In this document: positions 2,632-64,000 of the stretch, in pieces
Position numbering within the stretch: position 1 is the first letter of the stretch
Layout of the letters: each line of letters begins with the position of its first letter
Source of the DNA: Anthoceros angustus
Taxonomy: Eukaryota; Plantae; Anthocerotophyta
Reading direction: 5' to 3'
NCBI GenBank assembly: GCA_010909165.1
Contig: MU008165.1
Coordinates: forward strand, 2,047,042 to 2,111,041
DNA: 64,000 bases
Notes under the pieces: generated by a model
What the model saw: only the letters and a program-made list of their open reading frames with translations
What the model was told of the DNA's origin: nothing
Databases searched by the model: none
Translations under genes and position numbers: made by a program

Positions 2632-4295
2632 GGTCTGCGGCCCGCAAGGCCCACTCCGGGTCCATCCTTAGGATGGCTTCCTGGAATTGCAATGGTTCTT
2701 TATGGGCACAACCAGGTGGTATGCTCCACCTTACAGCGGGCCACGACTTGATCTTTCTCACGGAAACTCACGAACACCGGGCAGAAATCTTCCCACTTTT
2801 CCCAATTTCCTTTCCTTCTCTTTATTCAGGAATTATGTTTCTTCCAAGACACCCAAAGCTGCGGGTGGTGTGGCTTGCTTTTTCCGATCTTCTCTCTCAC
2901 AATTCATCACTGTGGTAAGGGAGGACTCTTTGGCGAGAGTTTTGTGGATCAGGGTCTCGGCAATGATTCTTCCATCTAATCGTCATTTATTCATAGCATG
3001 TTGCTATTTTCCACCTCAGGGTTCTCCCCATGCCAAAGGCCAGCCTCCTATGACATTTCAAGACCTTTCAGAAGATCTCATGCATTTTATGCCTCTTGGG
3101 GATATCTTGTTGGTTGGAGACTTTAATGCTTGGACATCCTCCGAGCAATCTCCTATCTATGCACCGGATGACCAACAAAAGTTATTCCCGCTTGATCTTG
3201 CTGAGGTTGGCCTCCAGAGACGGTCTGATGATCCGCACCAGGTTAATGTTTTTGGCAGGGCTCTTCTCAACCTGGTGGAGTCGCACAGCCTATTTATTTT
3301 CAATGGACTTCCTCAATGGCCTGGGAGCGAGAGGATTACCCACTATGCTCCTTCAGGTCAACTTCCTGCTGTCCTTGATTACGTCATTGGAGAGGCTTCC
3401 TTTCTTTCTTGTTCACCAATTGCGGTCTCGACTTCAAGCCTCTTGAGTCGACCATGTCTTCATTCTTGGCATATATCCTATGACAAACGATGCTGCTGCT
3501 CCAATCCCACAAGTCTTCTAGAGTCCACTTTTCCCTCAACCATCGTCTTGCTTCCCAATACTCCTCTCTTCTAAAAAGTCCTTGTGCCATTCCTCTTGGC
3601 CTTCCCTTCTCCCAACAAGCCCTTTGCCTTCACTTACGCCATGCTATCTTACGCATAAAATCTTTCCCCTAAACCTTGTCATCTGTCAAGCTCTCCAACC
3701 TGCTCCTCGCCACCCTTGGTTTGATGATGAATGCAAACGTCTCCGCTTTCATACTCATAAGTGCCTCCGTGCTCTCAATGTCCCATCCAAGTCTCATCAT
3801 TCCCCGCTGTACAAGGCTATTGTCAAGCCTTATAAGGCTCTTATTGCTGTCAAAAAGTCTGCTTTCTTTTCCTCCCAGCGTGATCGCCTCTTGAGGCTTC
3901 TCAGAGAATCTCCTGGTGGTGCTGCTTTTTGGAAGGAGTTTCACTCTCATCGAACAATCTTATTGGAGGCCTCTCCTGAGCTTATCAAGTATGTGCAAAC
4001 TCTCTTCTTAGAATCTGTTCCCCTTGTGAGTCTCGGGATCACAGGATCAAGCATTCCTCGACCTCATTCGGCTATCAACAAACTCGGATCTGGGAGAGCC
4101 TCGACCTGCGGATATCCACGGAGAACTTTTCTCTTATGCTCCTCATTGTGCCCCTCCCTTAGCTTTGTTCAATGAGGCTTTAGTCCATGGTTTTCCTGAG
4201 GCATGGTGTTGGAATGACATTCATTCCATCTTCAAGACAGGTGACCCACAGCTCCCGCCCAACTACAGGTATATCATGGTTGAGTCCATCTTCGC
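2628..4295 (+). pseudogene. LINE ORF2 5' part: apurinic-like endonuclease, linker and start of RT (frameshifted)
   Basis: SWNCNG, LIFLTETH, GGVACF, CYFPP, GDFNA, VLDY, PWFDDECK, IFKTGD..NYRYI spread over several frames. Confidence 0.9.
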
Positions 4296-5126
4296 TGTGG
4301 TAGGGAAAACCCGGGGCACTCCCGAGGTCCTCCCACTATAGCGGCCACACTTATCCCACTGTCGCTTCGTACGTTGGGTTTCGTCCCATGAGACTTGTGT
4401 GAAAATTCGAGGCCTTGTGGTACCAATCGCTACCTGCAGAGACACAACTTCTCGGCCTTCTAAACAAGCAAGGCGCCCTCTACTCTCCCTCTTCTTGCGG
4501 TGCACCGCACCTTTGCTCGAAAAATCACCAATCCTCGACCTACAGCGACACAACACTTGCAGGTCTGCCTTAGCGTGAGGAGCCTATCACGGGCGCCCAG
4601 GACCCCCGATCCACACGCGATTTCGTCCCTACTTCTAAGACCACTCTTCTCCACTCGGGGAGCTCTTTTACTTGCAGTTGGGATTCGTCCCTTAGGCTGC
4701 ACTGTGGCCTTCCACTAACACCTACACCTCTAATCCTCTACTCATCTTCTCATCTCCTCATCCTCTTCCTCCTATTCTAACCTCGATTCGGGCTTCTTGG
4801 TTTCGACTTTACAGCTGGCTCACAGGTCGGCCTCCACCAAGTTCTTCCTTGGGCGGTTGCTATGAGTTTGACACGTGAGAACCTCCGAGTCTTTCCTGTA
4901 GTCTACCCTCAAGCCGAGTTCTGGGCATTTGCCACACACCCAAAGCAAAGCAATTTCACGGCAACCATTCACAAGGGAGCAACTCGTTTAGGCACTTGCG
5001 GTGAGCAAGTCCTCCACCAAGCACTCCGACCACCGCGACTTCCTCTCTACGGACTGCGTTGGCTCAGACGGATGGAATTTGTATGGCAAAGGCAAGACAT
5101 GATACTTTACTTTGTGAAATCCTCCT

Positions 5127-5139
5127 CCTCTTATAGGAG
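5127..5139 (-). promoter_or_regulatory. Putative LTR TATA box (CTCCTATAAGAGG), near the U3/R boundary
   Basis: The same 13-mer occurs at 12397-12409 in the second LTR at a similar distance (0.84 vs 1.0 kb) from the LTR 3' end. Confidence 0.6.
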
Positions 5140-5639
5140 GCCTTCCACATACAACCTCCCTTAGGTGACCCTCTGCGGTCACCTTTTCCAATTTTCTATT
5201 ATTTCCTACAGACATTTAATGTATGGCACCTAAATCTATTATGCATCCTTGGTAAATTCTATTCTAGTAACTTCACCTAAGACCATCCTTAAGGATGTCG
5301 GACATCACCTATCCTTCCTATTCCCCAAAGCTCATTTATGGTCATTGACCATTCTAGTCTTCACCTCTGGGGTGGGGACATGCCCTTGTGGATTGGCTCC
5401 CTCGCCCTCCTTTTGCTCTGTCCCTTCCCGGATCTTGTCATCTTCCTAATGTGTGGGGCAAGTACAATCTGCCTTCCCGTCCCCTTCCTAATGTGTGGGG
5501 CAAGTACAATCTGCCCTTCCTCCATCTCCAGGGCGCTCTCCATCATCGCCCCTCCGGCCTCGCGCCTTCCTCGCCCTGGCGCCCTTCTCGGCCTCCGCGG
5601 TAGTCGCGCGGACTACGGTAGTGACTACGGTAGTGACTA

Positions 5640-7845
5640 CTTGGTACCTTCTCCTTCCTTCCTCTCTTCTTCCTCCGGTGATGTCTTGGGTTGAATCTTT
5701 TGCTCCTTCCTTTGTTTTGTCCATACCTATCATGGAGCATCTTCAAAATCTTCCCCATTGTCATGTTTACTAATCTCTCGGGCCTTCTTGCGTTGGTCTC
5801 CTCTCGGCTGGCTCCTTCCCTTGCTCGTGGGGAGAACTTCTCACCCTCCTTCTTCCTCGGTCGGACCCCCTCTCCTCCGGTGGGGTTGTCTCCCCCACCT
5901 CCTCTTCCTCCTTCTTCCTCTCCGGCCCCTTCATCGGCCCGCGGCCCGACTCCCCCGATCTCAGCGCCCGTGGGCTGCCTACCGGTAGTCAGCGGACTAC
6001 CGGTAGTCAGCGGACTACGGTAGTGGTCTGGTGGTGACCCCAGGAGGCTTTCCCCCTCCTTGCTCTGCGCCATCTTCCTTTGGCGCTCGCGCCTCCTTCA
6101 CCTCGACTCCTCAGTTCCTCGGAGTCCATCACATCAAAATCGGAGGCCTCACTGCACTGTTGCAGCTCCTTCATCATCATGAGGACCCAATGTCCTCCTC
6201 TTGGCCAACGCAGATCTCATTGTTGGCCTTCAAAATCTATTGTGGAGGGCCCCAAGCTGATGCATTTGGAGATCATCAATCTCAGTGGGCCACTCTCCAT
6301 CTTCACACCTACCTTTGTAGGCGTCCCTCTGAGGTGGTCAATTCCCCACCTTGACATGGAGGTCACATTCTCCTCCCTTGCTTCCTTATTTGGTGGCCAA
6401 TTTTGCACGAAGGGCATAATCACGCCCAAAACCTTCCTTCCTCACCATTCTATGTACCACCTTCTTGTGGTACTCCTCCTCTGGAACCTCCTTTGTTCCA
6501 AGTCCTCTATTTTGAGCAAGCCCTTCCTCTCCTTGCCAAGCATCTTTCGCTCCGGCTCTGGTCTTGGTGAATTTCAGCTCGGCGCTTCTCTTCCAAATCA
6601 GGGTCTTCTCAACTCTTCCTTCATGTCCGGATGATGGCTTGGTAGCCATCACTGCTCTTGCGTCCATTGCGAGACCTTCTCCTTCCTAGTGCCTGTTTTG
6701 CCCTTTTCTCCTCGCACCTGGCGCGCCTCTCGGCCGCGGTGATGCGGCTTGGTGACTACCCTACATGGTGGTAACTTTCTACTGGTATCTTCAGTATCTT
6801 CTTCTTCTTCTTCCTCCGGTGATGTCCATACCTATCATGGAGCATCTTCATCTTCCTTTGTTTGATTTGTCCATACCTATCATGGAGCATCTTCAAAATC
6901 TTCCCCATTGTGATGTTGACTCCTAATCTCCGGGCCTTCTTTGTTGGTCTCCTCCTGGCCTTCCTTGCTCGTGGGGAGAACTTCTCACCCTCCTTCTTCC
7001 TCCGGCCTTCTTGTGGTACTCCTCCTCTCCTCGGTGGGGTTGTCTCTCCCACCACCTCCTCTTCTCCGCCTCTGGGGCCCCCTTCATCGGCCCGGCGACT
7101 CCCCTAGCGGCGTGGTGGGTGCTTGCTACCGGTAGTCAGCGGACTACGTGGTAATAGTGGTCTGTCACCTGGTAGGTTGACCCCGGAGGTGGGCTTTCCC
7201 CCTCCTTGCTCTGCGCCATCTTCCTTGGCGCGCTCTCACCTCTCCGACTCCTCAGTTCCTCGAGTCCGGCCTCATCAAAATCGGAGGCCTCTGCACTGTT
7301 GCAGCTCCTTCTGTCATCATCATGAGGACCCAATGTCCTCCTCTTGGCCAAGATCTCATTGTTGGCCTTCAAAATCTATTGTGGTGGGCCCCAAGCTGAT
7401 GTGCATTTGGAGATCATCAATCTCCATGGGCCACTCTCCATCTCACACCTACCTTTGTAGGCGTCCCTTGGTGGTCAATTCCCCACCTTGACATGGAGGT
7501 TACATTCTCCTCCCTTGCTTCCCCTTTGGTGGCCAATTTTGCACGAAGGGCATAATCACAAAATCCCCGCTTCCTTACTACCATTCTATGTACCACCTTC
7601 TTGTGGTACTCCTCCTCTGGAACCTCCTTTGTTCCAAGTCCTCTATTTTGAGCAAGCCCTTCCTCTCCTTGCCAAGCATCTTTCGCTCCGGCTCTGGTCT
7701 TGGTGAATTTCAGCTCGGCGCTTCTCTTCCAAATCAGGGTCTTCTCAACTCTTCCTTCATGTCCGGATGATGGCTTGGTAGCCATCACTGCTCTTGCGTC
7801 CATTGCGAGACCTTCTCCTTCCTAGTGCCTGTTTTGCCCTTTCTT
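5640..7845. repeat. ~1.1-kb tandem duplication inside the solo LTR (5640-6720 vs ~6790-7845)
   Basis: Near-identical blocks differing mainly by small indels. Confidence 0.8.
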
Positions 7846-9440
7846 GCTCTAATTGGGCAAAATGCTCCTCCGCCTTTTGCCTGAATCCCTTGGGTTGTTG
7901 CTCGAATGGCTCTTTCTTGGTTTGTGACCTTCCCTCAGGACCTTTTCCTTGCGCTCATCCATGAGGTCGGCTGGAGCTTCTCTGACCTTTCCAACTTGGC
8001 TGCCTTTTCGTCGGACTCCATGGCCTCCAATTGCCATTTGGTCCTGCCTTCCCGCCATGTCTTGAGCTTTCACTTCCTCTTGGCATGCCCACAAGGAGGC
8101 TGCTAGCTCCCTAGCCCCTTCAAATCCACATGGTGAGTGCTTCACAAGCACTCGGCAATTCTCCTAGGGTCCTAATTCCACCCCTTTCTTCTTCTTTGGA
8201 AATCTCCAGCTCTCCGCCTCTCCATCAGCGGCCAGTCCCTCACGTCGCTCCATCCGCTCTCCACCAGCGGAGATGGTGGCCTAGCGCCGCCCGGCTCTGT
8301 TTCTCCTTCCCTTCCACCGTGGGCTGCACTACGTGGTGCACCCCCTGTGGTGTGCTCCAGCGGTGATGCGCCTACCTACCATGGTGGGCGCCTACCACGG
8401 TAGTCCGCCCACCCCTTGGGTGTGCCTCCCTGGGGTAGGTGAGATCTGGGCACCCAATGGTGGGGACTCCCCCACCCAGGCGTAGTTCTCTCATAGACTA
8501 CCATTGGCCTTCCTTGGCCGGTTCACTCCCTCCTCTTGCTTGCTCTTGTGGGGAAAGATTCCCACTCGGCAACCTTGCCATCTTCTCCTCTTGCCTAGCA
8601 TGCTTGTGGAGTCGACCTCCACTTCTTCCATAATGCAAAGGCAAGGCCTTTCCAAACCTCGGTGGAGATGGATGACCTCAAAGGGATGCCATGCATCTTC
8701 AAGCTCCTTGCTTGTGAGAAGTCCCTCTGCTTTCCCAAATGCACCAAATAGGTGCCGAGGCATGGCTCGGCCTTCCTCATCCACGAATTTGGCTTGAGGA
8801 GCTTCTCCGGTGGTGGATGTATGTTTATACATAATGGTTCCCCAATCCGCTATTCTATGGAAATCTTCCACAAAAATTGGAGGAAGTTGGTGCGAATAAG
8901 TTCTGGTAATTCACCAACCCCAGCACAATCTTTGCAAAGAGCCTCCACGTCAGCTCCTTGATGCTCTCTGTTTTCCAGCCATTCTTGGCGTGGGCCTTCA
9001 CCCCTCCATCCATCATGTCAAGGAACTCTTGTGGGATTTCGGAGAGGGCCGTCCTCTTCCCTCCATTCGACCTTTCGAGGAGAGCAATTCGAGCTCTCCT
9101 CCTCTCCATACACTGCCAATGCTTTTACGGTCCAAAGAAGGGGATCCGCTCGAGCATTCCTTTTCCTAACGCGCAGGGTCGCTCGATTGATGGAGATTGA
9201 TGAAGCACTCAATCAACTCCAAATTGGTGTAGGCCCATTGGCGGCCATACACCCATCCCAATTGGATGTTCTCTTCCGCAAAATTAACCCACCAAGTCTC
9301 GGGGTTGAGCTGCAAGAACGTAGAATTGAGGCATCAAAAGCTCGCCTCCCGGGCGGCGCAATACCTGCTTTTTGCCCTTCCTCCTTCGAAGAGGAACCTT
9401 GGCGCCTTTTCCCTTGCCTTTCCTTTCCTCCTCGAGGCAT
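6780..9440 (-). pseudogene. LTR-encoded accessory ORF (family A), frameshifted in this assembly; unknown function
   Basis: Starts MPRGG; motifs LGWVYGRQWAYTNLELIE, KNGWKTESIKELTWRLF, ADWG, a charged coil, ENVT, EWP and LGPHDD are shared with the ORF in the second LTR. 3' end approximate. Confidence 0.6.
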
Positions 9441-10270
9441 GGCAATGCCTTCCTTCCCAAATGTTTCAGGTGGAAGAGATTATTTTCCGATTCGGATACT
9501 ACCAACCTCGTGCTCGCTTCCTGGTGCTCCTCCTTCCGAGCTAGAAGCTAGGGCCCAAACAAACACCACGGCAGCATCGGGCAGCCTTCGAATCACTCTC
9601 GCCTCCTTCCAAAGGCGCCTGCCACCCTGCACTCGGCCGCCACTGGTGCTCCAACTTTCACCGCCGCCCTCCTTGGTGTTTTCCTGCCTCCGGCGCTCAC
9701 ACCCTCACCCGCTCCACCTCCTTTCCTTTCCTTCTTCGCCAATCACTGGAGCTAGGGTTTTCTAGCCTTCAACGCACAAACACTGCCTTCTTCTCGCGCC
9801 TTTCCTTCCTCGGCGGCGATGGCGATGGCGGCTTCCTTCCTTTCCTCACCTCGAGGCATGGCAATGCCTCCTTCCCAAATGTTTGAGAAGAGATTATTTT
9901 CCGATTCGGATACTACCAACCTCGCTCTGCTCTGTGCTCCTCCTTCTCACTAGAAGCTAGGGCCCTGAAACACCAGCAAGGTTAATTGTGAGGCTCTTGG
10001 CTTCACTCTCTCGCTTCCTCCTTCCAAAGGCGCCCTCGGCCCGGTCGGCCTCCTGGTCAAGCGCTCTGGTGCTCCAACTTTCACCGTCAGCCTCCCTTGG
10101 TGTTTTCCTAGCAGCTCCTGGCGCTTCTCACACTCCACAGCGACTGCCTCTTCTCCACCTCCTTTCCTTTCCTTCTCCAATCAGGAGCTAGGGTTTCCTT
10201 CTCCTTCAACGCACGCACTGCCTTCTTCGCCGCCTTCCTTCCTCTGGCGGCGATGGCGGCGGCTTCCTTC
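9420..10270. repeat. ~420-bp tandem duplication inside the solo LTR
   Basis: ctcgaggcatggcaatgcct...ggcggcttccttc occurs twice (~9430 and ~9850). Confidence 0.75.
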
Positions 10271-10493
10271 TCCTCTTGTGTTTACGCCCAGCCCAAGTGA
10301 AGTTGCTCACAAGGAGTTAAGCGCCCAAATTGCACTTTGCCTCTCCGATGTCCGCCAATCGGAGGCTTCTCAACCCTAGATTTGATTCATCATTCCAAAA
10401 TCCTAATTCTATCTAAACCGGCCTATTTCGTATTCCCGCTATTCCTAATTAATCGCTACTAATCACCCTATATGTTTATTCCCTATTGGTGAG

Positions 10494-10502
10494 CATATAT
10501 AG
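10494..10502 (-). promoter_or_regulatory. Putative upstream TATA (CTATATATG) for the LTR-internal ORF
   Basis: Same 9-mer upstream of the ORF in LTR B (19356-19364, duplicated at 18638-18646) and in the third copy (~63099-63107). Confidence 0.4.
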
Positions 10503-10858
10503 TGGATATCCCCTATATTCATTGCTTTTCTGGCCGAGATCCTGGCTACCACTGCGGTAGTCTACCCACTGGTAGTCTGCTCCTTTCTCGACCTACCGGC
10601 GTGGGGTGGCGACCTACGATGGTAGTCTCACACTTACCAATCTTCGACCGCCTCCCGCTCCGTCTGGGGGTCGTTTCGACCCGTTTTTCTTCCTGGGATA
10701 TCCTCTTCACATTCCTAACAATATTGTATGACTCCAGCTTCAAGATTCTCAGAAGTTTTCCTGGCATGCTTCTCTTCAATCGTTCCTAGCCAAAAAAAAA
10801 CAAAATTGTTCGTCTTTTGGCTAGTTTGGACTGGTTGCCCAAACTTTTACGTTCCACA

Positions 10859-11408
10859 TTCGCCAAGATCTTTAGCGCATGCTTGGAAATTCTCACTACT
10901 TCTTGGGCCGAGAATGCTGGAATCAGAGCACAGGGCCAAGCTGGGTTTCGTCCGGAGCGGAATACTCAGGGTAATCTTTTCACTCTCATTGCTATTATTA
11001 AGGAGGCCAAGAGCAAGCGGAGGGACGATCGACATGTTTATGTCTGTTTTGTTGATTTCAATGAGCTTCGTCTATCTCCCGAGAAATATTTGCCCGGTTT
11101 CATAGGTTGGGGTTGCCTACTCATCTTTTACATGCCATCTGGGTTCTCTATGAAAAGGTGAAGGCCAAGATCCACTCTTCTGTTGCTTTGACCTTTTGGA
11201 TTTTGCTTTGCAATTTGGAGACGTTAGAGATCCATCTTCTCCCAACTTATTTGGCTTGTTCGTTGATGACCTGGAGTCTTGGATTGCGGAGTCTGGGGAC
11301 CCCGGCTGCCTCCTCTCCTTGGTATATGTAGCTATTCTCCTGTATGCAGATGACATTGCTCTTTTGTCCCATTCTCCTGAGGGCCTCCAACAGCAACTAG
11401 ACACATTG
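10859..11408 (+). pseudogene. LINE reverse transcriptase fragment
   Basis: QAGFRPERNT, VYVCFVDF, SPNLFGLFVDDL, LLYADDIALLSHSPEGLQQQLD; continues the frame broken at 4295. Confidence 0.9.
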
Positions 11409-11819
11409 TGTGGTGGGAGGTTCCCGGGACCCCCGGAACCCTCAGCCCTGTAGCGGCCACACTTATCCCACTGTCGGTTCGTACATTAGGTTTCGTTCCC
11501 ACGAAGGAGTGGGGGAGCCCTTCCCGCGGATGGAGGTGCGCCCTCACGGACCTCTCACTCCCGTGCAGGCGCCGACTAAGCGCCTCCTACCGGGCGCCAC
11601 AGGTGACCCACCCTCGGTAAGTCACACTACCCTCGCGCGATGACTCGTCGGCGGACCTCGTCATGAGAGGCACCGCCAATGCGTGGCGACCTTGGGACCC
11701 CAAATCACCGTCTGATGGGCAATCCTCCCACCAGCAGTTCCTACACTCCCTAAGACCCTTCTCTGACAAATTTGGGGCCGCCCCTCAAGCTCTTGTCCAC
11801 GACCCTTGAAATTTCACCT

Positions 11820-12045
11820 TCCCTCTCTTTTCTAGGTTTCTTCCTCCTCTCTTCTCTTTTTGTCTTTTCTCTTTTCTCTCTTGCTCCTTCCTTCTCCTCT
11901 CTTGCTCCCTATCCTCTCTAGCTCCTCTCTCGTCCTCTCTCGCTCTCACTCTCTCGCTCTCTCGCTCTCTCTCTTTTCTTTTCTCTTTTCTCTTTTCTCC
12001 TCTCTTCTCCTCTCTTCTCTAATCTACCTCTTCCACTCTTCCTAG
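11820..12045. repeat. CT-rich low-complexity tract (GA-rich on the element strand) in the R/U5 part of LTR B
   Basis: Polypyrimidine run directly visible. Confidence 0.85.
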
Positions 12046-12396
12046 CTAACTTCTGCCACAGGCGCCCTCACAGCCTCCCAGGCCTCGAGATCATAGGGCA
12101 TTGCCCTCACGGACCTAGGCGGACATTTGGCTGCAAGTGGCGTCCGCGTCTTTGGATTTTGCTAGGGGTCTTCCTTACCGATCAGCCATGCCGTCACTGC
12201 AACCACAATGCGCTCCTCACGCTCGAGCTACCCGGCTACCTCCGGAAAGAAAGGTTTGGGCCGCCCTCACCACAGTCACCGCACCTCAAGACCCTACCGG
12301 ACACCATGCACCCTCACACGGTCGGCCGCGCTTGTGTAGCAAGACAAGCACACAGTCGGAGAGCAAGGCATGACATTTTATTATGGGAGCTCCTCC

Positions 12397-12409
12397 CCTC
12401 TTATAGGAG
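12397..12409 (-). promoter_or_regulatory. Putative LTR TATA box (CTCCTATAAGAGG)
   Basis: Identical to 5127-5139; flanked by the inverted repeat GGGAGCTCC...GGAGCTCCC. Confidence 0.6.
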
Positions 12410-12549
12410 CTCCCCAAACCCTAGCATTAATTAAGTCGGTGGGGTAGGTGGGGTTGCTTACGGTTTTAAGTAGGTGGCCTCTTAAAGGTTCTTAACCTAC
12501 CTCCTAACAATCCCACTAACCCCTAGGGGTCTTAATGACCCATTCACTC

Positions 12550-15500
12550 CCCTACCAACTATCGCCTACTTCTTCTTGGCGTTGGCATGGCGGGCGCCCA
12601 ACCACCGTCTTCCTCCTCTTGGCTTGGGGGTGTCCCCGTCTCTTCACTCGTCGTCATGACGGGAACCTCCACACTGTCTCGGCGATGTTGATGAGGCGGT
12701 GGGCACGCCACCCCTCTTGCAGGCGCTCTTGTAGAGGCACCGGCCTCTCTGTAGCCATCCGCATCCCGCAATTACCTCAGGCGGTTGGGTGTTGGTGCTC
12801 TGTCTGCCGCCAGACCCCACCAACTCTCGGCTGGAAATCTCTTCCTCTTCCATTGGCTCCTCCCACATTGAGCCTTACGCATCCATTTCACTCTCCAAGT
12901 CCCGAATCTCCGAGGTGAGGGTGCAATTCTTCAAAATCTCCACATCGTCATCGTGGGGACCCAACAACTTCCTTGTCAACAAGGCATCTCCTTGGCAAAC
13001 TTGTTGACCCTAGCATGTAAGTGGACTGCATCTCACGGCCCTTCAAACAAATCTCATCAAATTCCTCGGGCCACTCTCACGAGGCTATCTTACCATAGCG
13101 CATCCCTCTCAAGCGTCACCTCACTCAAGCAGGCGTAAGTGACATTCTCGGCATCTCTCTTCCATGCCTCCGGTATCCCTTGCGCCATGCATAATCGGCT
13201 GGGCGTTGCTTCTGACGACGGCATGCGATGCATCATTTTCCTCGGTGGGCTACCTCTTCCTTCCACCGTTGGTCGACCTCCGTTGCTTGCTTTGGAGCTC
13301 CTCACGCTCCTTGCTCCATGTGGCTGTCCTTCCTCCGGCTCCTTGAGCTTGGCCTCGATTCTTCATTCTTGGCTTGCGGCCTCGGCCTCCCAGGGGCAGT
13401 CTTGATCGTCCCTATTCTCTTCTTCTCGGCTGAAGGCGAGAAATTCTTCGCTCCTTCCCACGGACAGTCTCCTCAATCTTACGATTGAGGTAGCCACTTC
13501 CTTCATTCGCTCCCTACTTTCTTGTCTCGACCTTTGTTCTTCAATCTTGAGCCCCAACCTTCTCTCCAGTCAACTAGGCCCTTGCGCCATCTCCTTGATA
13601 GCCTTGCTATCCTTCTCCCCACCGATCAGTACTGCCCTCTCGACGCCTCACCTCCAACTCCTCTACTCGTAAGGCCCGCTTACTAATGGAGTATCAATTA
13701 GTCGATGATGGTCAGATCCTTCAAAGCCTTTGTCTTCTCATTCCTCCGGGTCGACAACGCCTTTCTCTTGGTGAGCGCCTCCACCCCCGATATGGGTGGA
13801 ACTCCGTGACTCGGTCATCTCACAGGGTGGGTTACATCCACCACCGCTCCATGGGGTTGCCTCAGACACATGGTGGCACCGCCACCTCTTCCTCTTGTGC
13901 CACTGCCTCGGACGACGTGCACTTCTTCCTTCAAGGCCGACGGGGTGGTCTCATCATCCAAGATCACCACGAGGTGAAGCACTCCTTGCTCCACCTTGGG
14001 TTCCTCCTCTGCCTTCTTCACCTTCTTAGGAGAGGGACCCTGTCATCCCTCGGAGGGACCACTTCAAGCGGTGGTAAGACTCCTCCGGCTCTTCTTATCG
14101 TAACCCATGTGCCCCCACAATTGCACAAGGTAAGTACTCAAATGGTGTCTCCCCACAGACGGGCACTCTTCTTCCTTCCTTGGCGTCGGGCGGGGTGGTC
14201 TCATCATCCAAGATCACCACACGGGTGAAGCACTCCTTGCTCCACCTTGGGTTCCTCCTGCCTTCTTCACCTTCTTAGGAGAGGGACCCTGTCACCCCTC
14301 GGAGGGACCACTTCAAGCGGTGGTAAGACTCCTCCAGCTCTTCTTGTCGTAACCCATGTGCCCCCACAAGCTGAGTAAGTACTCAAATGGGTGCCTCGCC
14401 CCTCATTATCCACAATGTTTGGCCTCGGACTTGTCTCGGTGATGCTCATATCACAAGATGGTTGTCCCCAGTCGGTGAGCTCCTTGCTTCGCCCACATGA
14501 AATGAAAGAATGCCTCAAGTAGGTGGTTCACGACCAGTCACCCCAAAACTATCCTTGTAAAAGCTTCCACTTGAGGTCGACAATCTTATCTGCCCTCCAC
14601 CGCCTTCGCCTATCCCTCCGATGAGCATGCCGAGAGCTTCCTCGGGAAGGTCGACCACTGCTCCATGGGGTTGCCTCAGACACATGGTGGCACGCCACCT
14701 CTTCCTCTTGTGCCCTTGTCTCCCCACAGACGGGCACTCTTCTTCCTTGGCGTCGGGCGGGGTGGTCTCATCATCCAAGATCACCACACGGGTGAAGCAC
14801 TCCTTGCTCCACCTTGGGTTCCTCCTGCCTTCTTCACCTTCTTAGGAGAGGGACCCTGTCACCCCTCGGAGGGACCACTTCAAGCGGTGGTAAGACTCCT
14901 CCAGCTCTTCTTATCGTAACCCATGTGCCCCCACAAGCTGAGTAAGTACTCAAATGGTATGCCTCGCCCCTCATTATCCACAATGTTTGGCCTCGTGACT
15001 TGTCTCGGTGATGCTCATAGGCCTTGACATGGTTGTCCCCAGTCGGTGAGCTCCTTGCTTGACTTCCACATGAAAGAATGCCTTCTTGAAGTAGGTGGTT
15101 CGTGACGGCGGTCAACCCAAAACTATCCTTGTAAAAGCTTCCACTTGAGGTCGACAATTCCTTCATTCGCTCCCTACTTTCTTGTCTCGGCCTTTGTTCT
15201 TCAATCTTCTTTGAGCCCCAACCTTCTCTCCGGGTCAACTAGGCGCCCTTTGCCAGCGCCATCTCCTTGATAGCCTTGCTATCCTTCTCCCCACATGGGG
15301 CAATCGCTTGGTGTCCTCTGACAGCTCACCTCAACTCCTCTACTTCACCTTAAGGCACTTCACTAATGGAGTGTCAATTAGGCGAGATGGTCGGCGATCC
15401 TTCAAAGCCTTTGTCTTCTCATTCCCCTCACAGGGGTCGACTCGGCCTTTCTCTTGGTGGCGGTCTCTCCACTCTGGCCCGATGTTGGGTGGAACTCCGT

Positions 15501-18500
15501 GACTCGGTCATCTCACAGGGTGGGTTACATCCACCACCACTGCTCCATGGGGTTGCCTCAGACACATGGTGGCACCGCCACCTCTTCCTCTTGTGCCACT
15601 GCCTCGGACGACGTGCACTTCTTCCTTCAAGGCCGACGGGGTGGTCTCATCATCCAAGATCACCACGAGGTGAAGCACTCCTTGCTCCACCTTGGGTTCC
15701 TCCTCCTTCTTCACCTTCTTAGGAGAGGGACCCTGTCATCCCTCGGAGGGACCACTTCAAGCGGTGGTAAGACTCCTCCGGCTCTTCTTATCGTAACCCA
15801 TGTGCCCCCACAATTGCACAAGGTAAGTACTCAAATGGTGTCTCCCCACAGACGGGCACTCTTCTTCCTTGGCGTCGGGCGGGGTGGTCTCATCATCCAA
15901 GATCACCACACGGGTGAAGCACTCCTTGCTCCACCTTGGGTTCCTCCTGCCTTCTTCACCTTCTTAGGAGAGGGACCCTGTCACCCCTCGGAGGGACCAC
16001 TTCAAGCGGTGGTAAGACTCCTCCAGCTCTTCTTGTCGTAACCCATGTGCCCCCACAAGCTGAGTAAGTACTCAAATGGGTGCCTCGCCCCTCATTATCC
16101 ACAATGTTTGGCCTCGGACTTGTCTCGGTGATGCTCATATCACAAGATGGTTGTCCCCAGCCGAGCTCCTTGCTTCGCCCACATGAAATGAAAGAATGCC
16201 TTCTTGAAGTAGGTGGTTCACGACCAGTCACCCCAAAACTATCCTTGTAAAAGCTTCCACTTGAGGTCGACAATCTTATCTGCCCTCCACCGCCTTCGCC
16301 TATCCCTCCGATGAGCATGCCGAGAGCTTCCTCGGGAAGGTCGACCACTGCTCCATGGGGTTGCCTCCAGCACATGGTGGCCCGCCACCTCTTCCTCTTG
16401 TGCCCTTGTCTCCCCACAGACGGGCACTCTTCTTCCTTGGCGTCGGGCGGGGTGGTCTCATCATCCAAGATCACCACACGGGTGAAGCACTCCTTGCTCC
16501 ACCTTGGGTTCCTCCTGCCTTCTTCACCTTCTTAGGAGAGGGACCCTGTCACCCCTCGGAGGGACCACTTCAAGCGGTGGTAAGACTCCTCCAGCTCTTC
16601 TTGTCGTAACCCATGTGCCCCCACAAGCTGAGTAAGTACTCAAATGGGTGCCTCGCCCCTCATTATCCACAATGTTTGGCCTCGTGACTTGTCTCGGTGA
16701 TGCTCATAGGCCTTGACATGGTTGTCCCCAGTCGGTGAGCTCCTTGCTTGACTTCCACATGAAAGAATGCCTTTGAAGTAGGTGGTTCGTGACGGCGGTC
16801 AACCCAAAACTATCCTTGTAAAAGCTTCCACTTGAGGTCGACAATCTTATCATCCTCCGGCCATTCAGCGTCTTGGCGTCTATCCCTCCGATGAGCATCT
16901 TTGAGCTTCCTCGGGAAGGTCGACCACTGCTCTCTTTCCATCTTCATTCCTCCGTGGGAGCCACACCATCACTCTCCTCGGCCTCCCAGGGCGTCTTCAT
17001 CCCTATTCTCTTCTTCTCGGCTGAAGAGTGAGTCTTGCCGCTCCTTCCCACCAGACGGTCTCCTCAATTTTACGGTTGAGGTAGCCACTTCCTTCATTCG
17101 CTCCCTACTTTCTTGTCTCGGCCTTTGTTCTTCAATCTTCTTTGAGCCCCAACCTTCTCTCCGGGTCAACTAGGCGCCCTTTGCCAGCGCCATCTCCTTG
17201 ATAGCCTTGCTATCCTTCTCCCCACATGGGGCAATCGCTTGGTGTCCTCTGACAGCTCACCTCAACTCCTCTACTTCACCTTAAGGCACTTCACTAATGG
17301 AGTGTCAATTAGGCGAGATGGTCGGCGATCCTTCAAAGCCTTTGTCTTCTCATTCCCCTCACAGGGGTCGACTCGGCCTTTCTCTTGGTGGCGGTCTCTC
17401 CACTCTGGCCCGATGTTGGGTGGAACTCCTGACTCGGTCATCTCACAGGGTGGGTTACATCCACCACCACTGCTCCATGGGGTTGCCTCCTGTACACATG
17501 GTGGCACCACCTCTTCCTCTTGTGCCCTTGTCTCCCCACAGGGACAGGCACTTCTCCTTCCTTGGCGTCGGGCAGGGGTGGTCTCATCATCCAAGATCAC
17601 CACGAGGTGAAGCACTCCTTGCTCCACCTTGGGTTCCTCCTCTGCCTTCTTCACCTTCTTAGGAGAGGGACCCTGTCTCCCTCGGAGGGACCACTTCAAG
17701 AATGGTAAGACTCCTCCAGCTCTTCTTCGGTAACCCATGTGCCCCCCACAATTGCACAAGGTAAGTACTCAAATGGCTATGCCTCGCCCCCTCATTATCC
17801 ACAATGTTTGGCCTCGACTTGTCTCGGTGATGCTCATAGGCCCGACATGGTTGTCCCCAGTCGGTGAGCTCCTTGACTTCCACATGAAATGAAAGAATGC
17901 CTGAAGTAGGTGGTTGAGAGTCAAAAACTATCCTTGTAAAAGCTTCCACTTGAGGTCGACAATCTTATCATCCTCCGGCCATTCAGCGTCTTGGCGTCTA
18001 TCCCTCCGATGAGCATCTTTGAGCTTCCTCGGGAAGGTCGACCACCGCTCTTTCCATCTTCATTCCTCTCGTGGGAGCCACCATCACTCTCGGTTTCGGC
18101 CTCCCATACACCTTCGAATGTGCCGATACCCATCCTTCGGATCCGCCCGCACGTTCCTCTCCGTCAGTCTCTGTTTCTCCCTCGGAGGGACCACTTCAAG
18201 CGGTGGTAAGACTCAACCAATTCCACATTAGAATAGGCCCAATGCCTATCGTAAACCCTTTGGGCTGCACATTTTTTCGGACCGTCGAAAATCCCATAAG
18301 TCTCTGGAGGAGACTTGCTGAAAACACAAAATCCCGGCCCCTCCTTCTCGGATCCTTCTCGGGCTTCTCCTTCACGCTTTTCTTCTTCTCCTTTGCTGAC
18401 AGGTTCGCTCCCTCCTTGCTGCTGGACGCCTTGCGCACTCCTCCGGGGCATTGCGTCTTCATCTCCGCCATATACAGGTCTAACTTCTCCAAAATCCTCC

Positions 18501-19200
18501 TTTTATACTCGGTCTTTCTCCTCTTTCGATCTTCCTCTAAAAAATCTAGCTAAGTGTTTCTTCAGGTCTGTCCTCGAGGCCCGCCTCCTGCTGATCCTAG
18601 TCCTCCGATAAATGAGCTAAACGCTCCCCTCTGCCCACATATATAGGGTGAGGAGGATTTTCCACACCCAAAGGCCAAGGACGAAATTTCCCTGTCAAGG
18701 CCAAGGACCCCCTTGATACGTTGGAATTCCTCAACCACGAAGGCCAAGGACGAAATTCTCCTCAGCGCCAAGATTTTCCCAAGGCTATATATGCTTGCAT
18801 GCGCCTCCTTGGTGCGCCTCTTCCTCCTCTCGCGCGCTGTCACACCATCACTCTCCTCGGCCTCCCATACACCTTCGAATGTCTTTGGGCGGTCCATCCC
18901 TTCGGATCCGCCCGCACGTTCCTCTCCGTCAGTCCTCTGCTTCTCCGCTCCGAGCCGTCAGAGCAAGACTCAACCAATTCCACATTAGAATAGGCCCAAT
19001 GCCTATCGTGAAACCCACTGAGTATTGGCCGAGCCCATCGAAAATCCCATAAGTCTCGGAGGAGACTTGCACAAACACAAAATCCCGGCCCCTCCTTCTC
19101 GGCGATCCTTCTGCTTCTCCTTCACCGCTTTTCTTCTTCTTCTCCTTCGTGTGCGCCCCTCCTTGCCGGGCTGGACGCCTTGCGCACTCCTCCGGGGCAT
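12550..19200 (-). pseudogene. LTR-encoded accessory ORF (family B), frameshifted and internally multiplied
   Basis: Starts MPRRS (19200; duplicate at 18451); motifs DRHWAYSNVELVES, DLPEEALGMLIGGI, DKIVDLKWKL, TDWG, ENVT, ERDA, EWP, LGPHDDD. 3' end approximate. Confidence 0.6.
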
Positions 19201-19500
19201 TGCGTCTTCATCTCCGCTTCCGCATCCTTCTCAAAAATCCTCCTCACTATGCCTCTCCTGATCTCCTCTCAAAAATCCAGCTAAGTTTTCGTCCTCCGGT
19301 GCTCTCCCCCGTCCTAGTCCTCTCCCGACCAACTCAAATGAGCTAAACGCCTCTACATATATAGGGTGAGGAGGATTTTCCACACCCAAAGGCCAAGGAC
19401 AAAAATTTCCCTGTCCAGGCCAAGGACCTTTCCTTCAAGAAACGTTAGAATTCCTCAACCACGAAGGCCAAGGAAAAATTCTCCTGCCACCGCGCCAAGG
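13400..19500. repeat. Complex tandem/nested duplications within LTR B
   Basis: The same 0.25-1.7-kb blocks recur 2-7 times (e.g. gaagcactccttgctccaccttgggttcctcc); 18080-18780 repeats at 18840-19500. Confidence 0.8.
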
Positions 19501-20015
19501 ATTTTCTCTATATATGCTTGCATGCGCCTCCTTGGTCGGCGCCTCTTCCTCCTCCCTCGCTCTGGCTCCTGGCCACCACCTTCAACCTCTCGCGCTGTCA
19601 TGCGGAATTGCCTTTGTATAACCAGACCTCTTCGCGTCTTCGGTGGAGTAAACTTACTCCATGCATTTTATGCGGGGGCGTGACTGGCGCCGCCGCCACT
19701 GGGCCGGCACCAACCCTCCTTTCTGCGGTTCGGCCTTGCGAACCTCCCGTGTAAATTCTTCCAACTTCCGGACCTCCGTGGGACCTCCGTCCTTTCTAAC
19801 CGTTGGACCCGTTTTGAATCCGTTTTCCTCCTTTACATCATCGGTCGGGGCGCAAATCTGTCCGCTTCTCCATGTGCCACTCTTGTTCTTTGTCTTCCGT
19901 CAATGATACATTGGTGAAAAAGAAAAAAAAGAAAAATAAAACCTAACTAATATGAACAAAACTAAGAGGCATCCGCCCTCTTCTGCCGTGGACCCAAAAT
20001 TTGGCGTTCCACATG

Positions 20016-20026
20016 CCCCCCCTTCC
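20016..20026 (-). other. Polypurine tract GGAAGGGGGGG
   Basis: Lies between the integrase stop and the TG start of the LTR, separated from it by 2 nt. Confidence 0.85.
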
Positions 20027-20057
20027 ACTTGTTTGCGTCCACCGCAAACAACAGGAC

Positions 20058-21127
20058 TCAAAAATACTTCTTGACCTTCCGACCATTCACTCGCGTTAGC
20101 GAGGTCTCCATCCAAGACTCGCGGTGAACAGACCCATTCTCATACACCTCCTCAACCTTGTAGGGTCCCATCCACCTCAATCTCAACTTTCCTGGAAAAT
20201 CTAAGTATCGGCTGTCATACAGCAACACCAAATCTCCAGCCACAATCACTTCTCTCTTTCGAAGCTTCCCGTCATGTCGATGCTTCCGTTGTTCTTGGAT
20301 CTTGTAGGTCTCCTCAAGTGCCTCTTCTCGGTCCTCCTCATAAGTCGCGAAAGCCTCCAATCGTATTTGTTTGTTGTCCTCCACAGTCATCCTTACGTCC
20401 TCCATGATTCGATGTGTTGGAATCTCAAACTCAATTGGTAACACTTGGTGACATCCGTAGGTCGGATAGTAGGCGTTCGTTTCGTGGTTACCTTCTCGGT
20501 ATCGATATGCCCAAAGTCTTTGAATGAAGCTTCGTGTCGATCATACATGTGTGTGGATCACCTTAGTCAAAATGGTACCCGACAATCCGTTGGTCTTCTC
20601 GTGAGGCCATTTGCCTTGGGTTGTAAGGCGTTGTCTTGCGGTGTCGTATGTTGAAGTAGCTGGTCAGCGACTCAATGTGATGTTCAAGTGAGTTCCTCGG
20701 TCACTCACCAACTCAAGGACAACCATACGTGTGATGATGTTCTCAAACAAAAATTTTACGCATTGTCGGGCGTCATCCTTCCTATGCCTCGCCTCTACCA
20801 TCTTGGTGCGATGTCGGTGGCCACCAATATGTATTGCTTAGTCCACGGTAGGTGGGCGAATCGGCCAACAAAGTCGATTCCCACTTCTCAAAAGGAGCGA
20901 GTGGCGAATGTAGGTCGATGGCCCTTTGTGTGACGATGTCGGCCTCCCTACGGCCCGGCGCGCATCTCCTAATAGAATCCCAAACATCACGTTGCATGGT
21001 AGTCCACCAAAAGCCTGTATCCAAAATCTTCTTAATCGTGACCTGCACCGAGTAATGACCTCCTGCCTCCTCCGCATGTAAAGCCTCAATCACTAAAACT
21101 GCCTCTCCAGGCTCCAGACACCTTCGT
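20058..21127 (-). pseudogene. Ty3/Gypsy integrase, non-chromovirus (Athila/Tat-like); element truncated upstream
   Basis: HAEEAGGHY..KILDTGFWWTTMQRD (zinc-binding region), PFEKW..DFVG core, LPIEFEIP, GDLVLLYD, FPGKLRLRWMGPY, VNG..VKKY; no chromodomain. Confidence 0.9.
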
Positions 21128-21130
21128 ATT

Positions 21131-21410
21131 CAAAGGGACAATGACCATGAGCTAGACAATGCATTATCTAAACTTGCAGTTGACAAGAAGACTCTGGAAG
21201 ATGCGGCTTGGGGATTGGAGTGCGAAGGAAACACGTTGCGTCAGAACCTGGAGGCAGAGCAGGAGAAAAAAGCGTGCTTGATCTGCTATGTGAAGCCTAG
21301 GAACACCGTCGTCCTTCCTTGCTTGCATTTTATGTTTTGCAACTTGCATTGACTGTGAGTTGGGATCTCTGTGTCCTATTTGCAGGCCCCATCCTTGGGT
21401 ATATAGTGTG
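21131..21410 (+). pseudogene. Coiled coil plus RING-HC (C3HC4) zinc-finger gene fragment
   Basis: Manual translation LRQNLEAEQEKKACLICYVKPRNTVVLPCLHFMFCN-[frameshift]-CIDCELGSLCPICR; no start codon seen; not in the ORF track. Confidence 0.75.
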
Positions 21411-21768: not shown

Positions 21769-22360
21769 GTGATGTAGAGGCGCAAGTCTGAACAGTTGCT
21801 GGCATGGTGGAGAGCTCCCCTCCAGCGCTATCGCCACCATGCTTAAACAAAAAGACACTTTCAAAAACGAGCCCGCGTAGGAAGAAATGCCAGCCATTTC
21901 TTACGCCAAATAGACAACATTTATAAGAACGTGGTTACTAAGCATCTTGTGCTTCGATCGATACTTAGATGGGGTGTCTAGAGGGAGTGGATACCCTTGG
22001 TGCGAATAGCTGAGGCACACTATAGTACAAGTTGTTAAGAACCAAGTCCTATTATAGGAAAATTCAATCAAGTGGACTATAATAGACAAAAAGCTAGGTA
22101 AAGATTTAGAATCACCCACCTTAGTAGAAAAAGGGACCCACACTCATCCATGCCTCGTCTCATCATCACTAACCACATCATTTATGCGGAAAATGCTCGA
22201 TTATGTGTGTGAGAATCACATTCCTCAAGCGCATTTATTTGAAATAATGTCAATCCCATTTATTGTTGCAATCATTTCATTCCGCATTTCATTGAGGATT
22301 TCATCTATTCTTGTCGCAGTTATGAAGCTCATCTATGTTTATCTCATCATCATGAAGATT
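21769..22360 (-). repeat. Inverted copy of segment B of the tandem unit (26372-26950)
   Basis: Reverse-complement match over ~590 bp with scattered differences. Confidence 0.9.
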
Positions 22361-22598
22361 CGATCATTATCAACTTCAAGTATTAATCCTTTGCAATTGG
22401 GAAATGTGCATCTTGCATGATGATTATGCAACCATGGAGCAAGACATCGCTTGAAAGGAATGAGAACATCGTCCACTTGTGTGATTTCTTGATGTTTTTA
22501 ATTTCATCTTGACAAATGGTGCAATCCTTGACTTCGTCGCCATTATACATCCTTGTTCTCACCTTGAATGTTCTTCTAATTGAACTGTTATGCTCCAT
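22190..22598 (-). pseudogene. RING-H2 zinc-finger gene remnant (paralogue of the array RING ORFs)
   Basis: Across frames: DCTICQDEIKNIKK..CSHSFQ..CLAPWLHNHHARCTFPNCK, followed by an acidic tail DEILNEMRNEMIATING. 3' end approximate. Confidence 0.65.
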
Positions 22599-23998
22599 CA
22601 GGATTTCCCTAACCCTAAATGAATTCTTCGCTTCCTTGGAATAAGGAATAATGTGGTATTCTGGATGCAGTGATATGCCATATATTCGATGACAAACATA
22701 TATAGTTGGGGGTCATGTAACTAGGTATTATCAGGTAAAAAAAGTTTTTTCTCGATAACAAAATTGATAATAATTATAAATTGGTCTTACTATTTTAAAT
22801 ATTAGATAAAAATTATAAGATCTAATATATATGGTATCTATGTATGGAGTTGTGTTCACTGCAGCTTCTTAAAGATAGGTAGATCTCTAGAGTTTAGGGT
22901 TTATAGGTAGATAGAGGTTCGCTAGGCTAAAGAGCAGCATATGTGACTTGTGTCTGTGTGTAGGACCCAGCTACCTGAGCGTCGTACGACGTTTCCGCCA
23001 TGGTCTAGGGGCCCTACCATACGTGAATGCATGTCCATATGGCCCTTCGTATGCCACTACGAGTGATGGGGAAAAATTGAAATGTGTATGAATTGAGAGT
23101 GTAAAACGTCTTGAAAGTCTCACCTGGTGTGAGCCTGTAGGTAAGCCTATTAAGGCCCTAGGTTGTGCAGTATTCGACCAATATATCGTTTTCCTGGTCT
23201 CATGGGGTTAGGAAGAGCCAACTTGCAGTTCTCTTGCAGCCCTTGCAGGTAGTGGATTACCACCAGGTCGTGACACAAAGCCAGAACATTGCGTAGGAAC
23301 GGCATCACATAAAGCCCTCAAGCTTGAGGCAAACTGGTTGGTGGAATCCTTTGACGAATGATAGTGAGAAAGAGCTCATACATTTGCTGCCCGTGTGTAT
23401 GTGTTCCCATACTAACAACCCCCTGTCTATAACTATATGTTACACATGTGCATAGGTATATCTAACAAAGTGGCACCCTCGGCGGGACCTGCACATTCAA
23501 GTGCAAAAGGCTTGATGTCCTAACCTAAGGCTGGCTTGTCATCTGACTCATCATTCGCTAAGCTTTCCTTCACGGCTCCTGTTTGCCTAACAAGCCAGGC
23601 ACACAAATCCGTCGATCTCTTGATTTAGAAGGTTGCTTCTTGGGAAATGAAATGCTCTACTAACCGAGTCCTTAGAGGTTTTGACTTCACGGAGGAGGAA
23701 CTTGCTGCCTCGACTTCACGGAGGAGGAACTTGCTGCCTCGACTTAGTGAATAAAAATTCCAGAAATAGTCCCAATAGTAGTTCCCATGGGGCTTGTCAA
23801 CACCCAAAGTGTATACCCTCATGTTTGTGCTTGATCATTAGATCCAAGTCTTCCAAGCACCGTCGGGCAATTATTCTTTGGGGTCTTCCTCATCCCACAC
23901 TATTGTTGCGATGTTGAACTTCTTAGGCTCGAGTCTTCGACAAGGTCCGTGATCATCCATCCGCCGAAAGTTCGTCCACAAAAACATTGCGTCGGTCT

Positions 23999-62230: not shown

Positions 62231-62512
62231 ACCACCGCGCCGGCGAGACCACGGGGGCCCGGGTTGTCGGCAAACGGCCCTCGTGCGTTGTTCCTAAAAT
62301 GTTGCCCGCGGACAGCGCGAGATGTTGCTTCGACAACGCATCAAACCTCGACCCCTCCCTCCCAACCAGCACACCAACAAAGCGGCGAGGAGACCTCCAT
62401 CCGGGGAACTGGCCGGATCATCCAGGCCGCCAGCGCCCGGCTCCGTCATCGCACCATCAAATTATACGGTGGTGGCGAGCAAGCGAGCTTGCATCACGGG
62501 AAGCGGCGGTGG

Positions 62513-63070: not shown

Positions 63071-64000
63071 TCGGAAAAGCAATGAATAGGGGATATCCAC
63101 TATATATGCTCATCAATAGGGGAATAAATATATAGGTTAATTAGGGGTGGCGGCTAGAATAGAAAAGATAGGCGCTTAGATAGGATTAGGATTTTGTAAA
63201 TGATGAACCAAATCTAGGTTGTTCCTCGGTGTGATCATCCAAAGAAGGCAAAGTGCGGTTTGGGGGCAACTTCCTCTTCGAGTGGCGTCCTCACTTCACG
63301 AAGAGAGGCTGAGGTGGGCGTAAGGGGGCGCGAGAAGGCCATTATGAGTGTCATTGCGACTTGTGAGCAAGAGGAGGCGGCGAGGAAACCCTAGGCGAGA
63401 GAGGAGGAGGCGGACTCGGCTCGAACACCACGGGTGTTTGGACCCAATTGGCGTGAAGGAGGCGGTCTTTGGAATTTGTCAGGCGGGAGCCACAGTCGAG
63501 GAGCCTAGCGGTGTGAGATTGAAGGGATTGAAGGCGAGGAGGAGCAAATGCGACGGAGAAAAGCAGCTCACTGGCGGCTTGCCCCGGAGGAGAAATCGCG
63601 AGGGGAAAGTGCGCTAGAAGGCTCAAGCCGGGGCTAACGTGTACTTGTGCCTCGGGTTGGGTATTCTGCTAGTGACAAGGAAGGGAGTGTTTGGGAGTAA
63701 AGCTTTGGAGCCCCACTGGAATTGGAGAGTAATTCTCCTCGTTAGAAGCGTTGGAAGTGAGAAAGGTGCCATGCCACGTGGGAAGAGCAAGGGAAGGAGC
63801 CACTGCCAAAGGTTCCTCCTCGAGAGGAGGAAAGGGCCGGAGAAGCACGCCGCGAGGGAGGCGAGCTTATAATGCCCCAATTCACTTGTTTTGCGGGCAG
63901 CTTAACCCCGATTTGGTTGATTTTTGCAATGGCGAGGAGGATAACATCCAATTGGGATGGGTGTATGGCCGCCAATGGGCCTACACCAATTTAGAGTTGA
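63071..64000 (+). mobile_element. 5'-truncated, diverged copy of giant LTR family A (opposite orientation) including the start of its ORF (ATG 63771)
   Basis: Reverse-complement similarity to 10535-9210; encodes MPRGK... and LGWVYGRQWAYTNLEL. Confidence 0.8.

Follow-up and report, generated by a model that had tools for sequence, protein, structure and literature searches.

A putative gene of about 700 codons inside the long terminal repeats of two diverged Gypsy families in Anthoceros angustus

The stretch of DNA analyzed here, which we call the window, comprises 64,000 nucleotides of the Anthoceros angustus genome assembly (GCA_010909165.1, contig MU008165.1, positions 2,047,042 to 2,111,041 of the forward strand). 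It contains two large blocks, A and B, both in minus-strand orientation and both inserted in one copy of a long interspersed nuclear element (LINE). Block A is a solo long terminal repeat (LTR) of one Ty3/Gypsy family; a truncated element of another family contributes its 3′ LTR as block B (Table 1). Within the LTRs of these two diverged families there very probably lies a protein-conserved region of about 700 codons, which persists in the solo LTR. Such a gene had been proposed in an earlier interpretation made from the letters of the window (the sequence-only reading), and we describe below the LTRs, the conserved region, and what its position in an LTR may mean for the element that carries it.

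Table 1. Positions of the features discussed, counted from the first letter of the window
Feature	Position	Strand	Remarks
Left part of the target LINE (endonuclease region followed by the first part of the reverse transcriptase region)	2672..4295	+	reverse transcriptase-region frame runs up to the insertion
Family A solo LTR	4296..10858	-	
57-bp block common to A and B near the LTR 3′ end	4336..4391	-	likely U5 end signal
Downstream TATA-like box and poly(A)-like motif, family A	5085..5140	-	conserved with B 12360-12410
Internal duplicate of 6798-7842, repeating the C-terminal part of the gene	5658..6706	-	86% identity, 94 gap positions
LTR gene of family A (putative), frameshifted	7136..9440	-	MPR start, K/R-rich tail, N-domain, charged middle, C-block
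Internal duplicate of 9420-9839 (second MPR start)	9837..10270	-	77% identity, gap-rich
Upstream TATA-like box, family A	10490..10505	-	also in B (19363, 18645) and in the third copy (~63100)
GACTAC/GGTAGT cluster, family A	10550..10630		further clusters elsewhere in A
Right copy of the target-site duplication (10859-10863) and LINE reverse transcriptase continuation, cut again by element B	10859..11408	+	
Family B 3′ LTR	11409..20013	-	
Downstream TATA-like box, family B	12360..12410	-	AATAAA 24 bp later
LTR gene of family B (putative), frameshifted and internally repeated in the assembly	12770..19200	-	
Polypurine tract of element B	20014..20030	-	purine tract directly before the LTR TG
Integrase remnant of element B	20058..21135	-	seen in translation; no chromodomain; broken off at the N-terminal zinc-binding region
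Third, A-related LTR fragment	63074..64000	+	TATA-like box, MPR at 63771, start of N-domain; cut by the window end

Block A starts with TGTGG and finishes with CCACA, giving it TG..CA termini, and a 5-bp target-site duplication, TTCGC, stands on either side of it (4291–4295 and 10859–10863). It splits the reverse transcriptase (RT) frame of the LINE, which reads ...YIMVESIF before the block and AKIFSACL... after it and is continuous across the insertion. The LINE itself shows similarity to the endonuclease family PF03372 at 2672–3571 (E 8.8e-5) and to the RT family PF00078 at 11160–11408 (E 3.6e-5, with a YADD motif in frame), both below the curated cut-off. The empty site is present among contigs from two public runs, labeled X1 and X2 (that X2 derives from RNA is a guess): one short-read contig of X1 joins 4290 to 10859, and the 5 letters of the duplication fit either side. 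An X1 contig on the element-sense 5′ terminus of block A carries 23 further letters: the reverse complement of a purine tract, then TGTTTGCGTC. This 10-mer occurs once in the window, beside the polypurine tract (PPT) of element B, between integrase and PPT. Because the contig carries both the purine tract and TGTTTGCGTC, the family A terminus follows a PPT in another genomic copy, in a context like that of B. A repeat comparison of the block found no long repeat pairing its two ends, so that a small element with two short LTRs is excluded. Taken together, the ends with their duplication, the empty site, and the PPT-preceded copy of the terminus establish block A as a solo LTR of a minus-strand element, as the sequence-only reading had held.

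Block B runs from a TG at 20013 to a CCACA end at 11409 inside the same LINE. The integrase frame of element B closes at 20058, 44 bp ahead of this TG, and the purine tract lies between them, in agreement with the earlier observation of a PPT shortly after the integrase stop. Integrase is thus the last pol domain of element B, followed by PPT and 3′ LTR in the Ty3/Gypsy order, and because block B starts directly behind the PPT that follows the integrase stop, it is an LTR. The gag, RT, RNase H and 5′ LTR of the element are missing, since it breaks off in integrase near 21135; the gene had been claimed to be present twice per element, and this was not seen here, where a single LTR of element B is left. 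No loose contig end was seen at 11409. The relatives of the integrase are two unnamed database proteins with PF00665, P0001 (48%) and P0002 (39%). A search with P0001 matched none of 19 viral contigs and 4 of 125 metagenome loci, all distant, and by tblastx none of these four carries the LTR gene.

Families A and B likely belong to an Athila-like, non-chromovirus Ty3/Gypsy lineage. The 5-bp duplication and the absence of both a chromodomain and an aRH domain after integrase fit Athila, and also Ogre and Retand. A 5-bp duplication is reported for 95% of Athila elements (PMC6317226), and Selgy, Phygy and TatI, which have 4 bp according to the same survey, do not fit the 5 bp found here. The mix of elements in the window and the integrase tail also suggest a land-plant host. 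LTRs of up to about 5 kb have been reported for non-chromoviruses (PMC6317226), so that there is no novelty in the LTR size by itself.

The assembly of the window is noisy, and its internal repeats differ largely by gaps. Block A has two internal duplicates and block B has several (77–94% alike, gap-rich), and the assembled spans of 6.6 kb and 8.6 kb shrink to about 5.0 kb and 4.3 kb once these are removed. Of the giant LTRs put forward earlier, the LTR status of both blocks thus stands, but their size was inflated by duplicates. Contigs of X1 and X2 differ from the window between 3500 and 22000 by short indels at 369 places. They also skip the repeats of B: one X1 and one X2 contig leave out 3590 bases of the repeated middle, and one X2 contig leaves out 877 bases near the start. 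Because of these indels and skipped repeats, many of the frame breaks described below are likely assembly errors. The internal duplicates of block A are likely assembly artefacts as well, although no contig joint was seen across them. Contig depth (bins of 0 to 8434 in A and 0 to 460 in B) does not measure copy number and was not read in that way; X2 leaves most of block A and the 3′ end of B uncovered, a gap that was given no weight as evidence. Abrupt junctions in the assembly occur near 21135, 57400–58350, and 62940–63070.

As DNA, the two LTRs are barely alignable, as had been noted from the letters: the only match between A and B (blastn, word size 7) is 57 bp long with 89% identity, near the element-sense 3′ end, and the first 9 bases of both LTRs are identical. 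Two X1 contigs at 11446–11496 share the 57-bp block and continue with about 100 unlike letters, which hints at a further LTR family. At the protein level, the motifs listed in the sequence-only reading, from an MPR start to LGPHDD, were recovered in order by pattern search on the minus strand of both blocks. In element sense, the two blocks share about 240 residues of an N-terminal domain and a block of about 100 residues at the C-terminal end. In A, the conserved N-domain lies at ~9330–8690 and the conserved C-block at ~7600–7310; in B, MPR occurs at 19200 and 18451, the N-domain is most clearly visible at 18450–17700, and the C-block lies at 13240–12944. Pieces of the family B gene and of the integrase are covered by X2 contigs.

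A frameshift-aware alignment of the N-terminal half of A and B gave 106 identical residues among 242 aligned and a score of 234, compared with 45–63 for five local shuffles and 127 for antisense against antisense; it requires 13 frame breaks in A and 11 in B. When the N-half was trimmed slightly, the sense score exceeded the antisense score by 117, and none of 120 neutral-drift simulations reached a gap of 100. Under stricter gap costs the N-half scored 121 (antisense 57), a value reached by none of 40 shuffles (maximum 49). The C-block under the same stricter costs scored 52 and 60 for the two copies in A, with antisense scores of 41 and 32; none of 40 shuffles reached either value (maxima 35 and 37). 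Stop codons on the element strand are depleted in the A gene, with 3.0 per 100 codons against 5.2 and 6.1 in its flanks. Identity by codon position (0.54/0.68/0.36) was rejected as coding evidence and dropped, because the antisense alignment gives a nearly equal pattern (0.49/0.63/0.36).

A third LTR copy, related to A, keeps the N-terminal motif as the sequence-only reading had noted. It is 75% identical to A over 247 bp and 78% over 163 bp, and retains a 19-residue identical block. It starts near 63074, without the first ~330 bp of the LTR and with no visible TG end. The A gene is estimated at 708 codons from MPR to LGPHDD, with the frame closing near 7139 after some 770 codons in all, and the B gene at about 640–700 codons. 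The same-sense open reading frame (ORF) of about 800 codons claimed earlier therefore corresponds to a protein-conserved region of about 640–770 codons, but not to a long open frame in the assembly. Because protein conservation has outlasted DNA alignability, selection is indicated during the divergence of the two families. The expectation that the gene survives solo-LTR formation is borne out by its retention in block A. The sequence-only reading also suggested that a Gypsy accessory gene had been relocated into the LTR: the homologous coding region is indeed in both LTRs, but no internal-region homologue from which it might have moved was found.

Two conserved TATA-like boxes flank the gene. 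All three copies have the upstream box, 360–650 bp into the LTR and ahead of the start codon; it is likely the promoter of the LTR gene. The downstream box lies ~840 bp from the LTR 3′ end in A and ~1000 bp in B, is followed within ~25 bp by a poly(A)-like motif (AATAAA in B, a variant resembling it in A), and likely marks the U3/R boundary. Judged by these two boxes, the gene appears to sit in U3 rather than in R/U5. Family A also carries an excess of the hexamer GACTAC, with 13 occurrences in its non-duplicated part where 1.0 is expected; none of 200 simulations reached this count, the best of all hexamers tested. The GACTAC/GGTAGT copies, at 5599–5640, 5979–6024, 7121–7147, 8392–8502 and 10556–10626, are partly palindromic and are placed around the gene and both promoter regions. 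Speculatively, those flanking the gene could be candidate binding sites.

The predicted product has a K/R-rich N-terminus. Over 12 frame scans the top 19-residue hydropathy was 1.37, with no transmembrane-grade or signal-peptide-like stretch, and because of these two features we favor a role in the nucleus over one as an envelope protein. Searches for relatives were all blank. Pfam gave no relevant match on 20 LTR-gene fragments (43–191 aa, all partly out of frame), only sub-threshold unrelated ones, and no transposase family was matched in these scans; the Transposase_32, Athila and plant mobile domain families proposed in the sequence-only reading were likewise unmatched on these frameshifted pieces. 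Among longer proteins, none of 76 candidates matched the A fragment 8491–8910 and none of 5489 matched A1, a six-fragment alignment, at E<=1. The B fragment 17662–17964 had no match among 1.84 billion representatives, and the A fragment 9169–9333 had none among 163 metagenome contigs. The ESM Atlas yielded no usable match (best 0.80, to unnamed bacterial clusters), and PDB sequences a single one at E 1.6. AlphaFold on A1 returned confidence scores (pLDDT 51, pTM 0.13) that make the model meaningless, and there was no BFVD match below E 2.2. Because the queries were short and partly out of frame, these blank results carry little weight. By eye, the order of motifs in the N-domain resembles that of Transposase_32 (PF20167), a likeness that none of the searches supported.

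These observations can be joined in one mechanism, which on balance we consider probable: a gene in U3 of an Athila-like element, with its own promoter, encoding a soluble nuclear accessory protein. The downstream TATA-like box of the 5′ LTR would start the genomic RNA, and because it is taken as that start, the gene would lie in U3. The upstream box would start the mRNA of the gene, and the poly(A) signal of the LTR itself would end it. Since U3 is copied into both LTRs during reverse transcription, each insertion would carry two copies of the gene, and recombination between the LTRs would leave one copy behind in a solo LTR. The predicted soluble nuclear protein may help transcription of the element or its escape from silencing, and, more speculatively, may be a nuclear factor that acts on the LTR of its own family. 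In this form the mechanism supposes that the gene is intact and expressed today and is carried twice by full-length elements. A broader version, which we regard as unlikely, would extend it to a whole plant Athila-like lineage that has shifted its accessory gene into the LTR. Each LTR, those of a large solo population included, would then be a self-sufficient transcription unit for a family-specific DNA-binding factor, which would recognize short repeats in its own LTR (the GACTAC arrays in family A) and sustain the activity of the family in trans. In that case solo-LTR formation, commonly regarded as a means by which the host disarms retrotransposons, would leave the anti-silencing gene in place.

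Several results weigh against parts of this account. No intact frame of any length is present in the assembly: without a stop, the A gene region reads for at most 139 aa. Stop depletion is mixed in B (3.4–3.6 per 100 codons in the gene, 4.3 and 2.7 in the flanks). Under looser gap costs the C-block shows no sense/antisense asymmetry (101 vs 95). The charged middle, listed in the sequence-only reading as a conserved coiled motif, does not hold up as one, being conserved no better than chance (its score was equaled in 11 of 40 and in 5 of 40 shuffles). On the side of the element, the window shows neither a full-length element with two LTRs nor a primer-binding site. The PPT link of family A depends on the 23-letter loose end of one contig, and the X1 contig over the integrase-PPT-LTR junction of B extends only 26 letters into the LTR, where 31 are required for a bridge. 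The Athila-like assignment of the integrase tail is tentative. With regard to function, no homologue, family or fold stands behind any role of the LTR gene, the frameshifts could conceal a transmembrane segment, and the GACTAC repeats are absent from B.

One alternative keeps the gene in the LTR and places it in R/U5. The upstream box would then start the genomic RNA, the gene would be its first cistron, and gag-pol would be reached by splicing or from the second promoter, functionally an arrangement like that of the 5′ extra ORFs of Ogre and Tekay. Retention of the upstream box in all three copies, at an ordinary place for a promoter 360–650 bp into the LTR, is in its favor, as is the share of elements with sense 5′ extra ORFs, 33% for Tekay and 21% for Ogre (PMC6317226). 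We nevertheless find it distinctly unlikely, as both families have, downstream of the gene, a second conserved box closely followed by an AATAAA-type motif, the ~0.8–1 kb after that box, ending in the 57-bp block, looks like a normal R/U5, and minus-strand strong-stop DNA would have to exceed 4 kb. The gene might also be a mere passenger that became fixed in an ancestral LTR, either captured or brought in as a nested element, once conserved and now decayed or dispensable. In favor of this are the lack of an open frame in the assembly, a middle at chance level, weak asymmetry in the C-block, and no relatives elsewhere. It is an improbable explanation in our judgment: protein conservation that outlasts DNA alignability needs selection during family divergence, the gene in A is not bounded by inverted terminal repeats, a 19-residue identical block persists in the A-related third copy, and short-read contigs point to assembly errors behind many of the breaks.

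A gene in U3 would, within the genomic RNA, take the position of env after pol, and the sense 3′ ORFs of Athila are called env-like, some with transmembrane segments (PMC7264820). The product could accordingly be an env-like or movement protein acting on virus-like particles or membranes, not in the nucleus. This seems quite improbable given the basic N-terminus and the hydropathy scans, in which no membrane-grade value was reached, although frameshifts weaken that test. Finally, block A could be either a chimera of the assembly or a DNA transposon with TG..CA ends, while B would be a similar element lying beside integrase by chance. The error-rich window with its abrupt junctions and the 5-bp inverted repeats at the ends of the block would suit such an origin, which we hold to be very remote: the empty site is present in short reads, in another copy the A terminus comes after a PPT and a motif like that of B, block B abuts the PPT and lacks a flanking duplication, the first 9 bases of A and B agree, and no transposase family matched. 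We retain an LTR-borne U3 gene for a nuclear accessory protein as the preferred reading.

Elsewhere in the window, the target LINE is preceded by short tandem repeats at 610–1100 (30-bp x2, 10-bp x10 and 20-bp x2), and two long plus-strand frames without Pfam match, at 1660–2631 and 1617–2048, possibly represent its ORF1. The two LTR families inserted ~550 bp apart in this LINE copy (at 4296 and 11409), both opposite to its orientation. A C3HC4 RING-finger fragment on the plus strand at 21135–21350 (PF13920, E 2.6e-7) abuts the broken integrase of element B, and may be a piece of a host gene or an assembly junction. Much of the remainder is a tandem array at 21769–57400, with a ~3.95-kb unit and about nine unit-lengths, several copies being partial or rearranged. 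The units are 91–97% alike with gap-dominated differences, and each holds subrepeats (63-bp x4, 37-bp x2 and 34-bp x3); the piece 21769–22927 is inverted relative to the rest. No tRNA or Rfam match was found in the window, tandem array included. To the right lies a second, unrelated-looking Gypsy element on the plus strand (58300–62600), with gag-, RT-, and integrase-like stretches by eye and frameshifts. It has a purine tract and TG at ~62575–62590, and a possible LTR pair in 57569–57725 and 62745–62902 (84%); no relevant Pfam match was found on seven fragments of it. Short pieces of the tandem unit (28–136 bp, 97–100% alike) lie at the junctions around this element and ahead of the third LTR copy, at 57428–58352 and 62938–63071, and are possible signs of joins in the assembly.

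The layout of a gene inside an LTR is known from sag of mouse mammary tumor virus (MMTV). The plant reviews and surveys consulted treat LTRs as non-coding (PMC7264820, PMC3485330, PMC6317226), and place extra ORFs of plant elements internally, either ahead of gag or in the interval from pol to the 3′ LTR (PMC7264820, PMC6317226, PMC4408406, PMC3485330, PMC11963269). In the literature searched, with partial coverage and literal phrase matching, we found no case of an LTR-borne gene in a plant or Gypsy element; the per-element table and sequences of PMC6317226 lay outside that search and might list such cases. A conserved gene of this size would explain why some LTRs reach 4–5 kb. If the mechanism is true, the gene is doubled with each insertion, and solo LTRs become potential protein-coding units. 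One LTR would unite promoter, gene and candidate target sites, offering a handle on the role of accessory ORFs in plant retrotransposons. Genes of this kind would escape annotation in which LTRs are masked as non-coding.

The LTR ORF of MMTV has about 320 codons and its product is a membrane superantigen. The U3 region of this virus holds the Sag ORF together with its own U3 promoter (PMC9412291). It is in layout that sag/naf is like the gene proposed here, with an ORF inside the LTR that has its own promoter and so is duplicated in each provirus. MMTV, however, is a vertebrate betaretrovirus, whereas the present elements are Ty3/Gypsy with LTRs of 4–5 kb, ~700 codons, and no membrane segment seen. 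Among plant elements, the rice families Retrosat2, RIRE3 and RIRE8 share LTRs of >3 kb, an extra fast-evolving ORF, and many solo LTRs (PMC3485330), but their ORF0 lies upstream of gag-pol and is treated apart from the LTR, and LTRs are said there not to code replication enzymes. The Tat/Ogre/Retand elements, whose ORFs include those with the plant mobile domain (PMD, PF10536) and Transposase_28 (PF04195), likewise have an accessory gene without an assigned function (PMC4408406, PMC7264820); theirs are internal and mostly antisense, and neither PMD nor Transposase_28 matched the fragments here. For gene23 of maize Grande, an own promoter and a nuclear product are reported (PMC7264820). In several respects the present elements resemble Athila, with its non-chromovirus integrase, 5-bp duplication, large LTRs, and same-sense extra ORF downstream of pol, in which a Transposase_32 domain is reported for sunflower (PMC11728184). 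The Athila ORFs (ATHILA ORF-1, PF03078; Transposase_32, PF20167) are nevertheless described as lying between pol and the 3′ LTR, whereas the gene described here lies beyond the PPT, inside the LTR itself.

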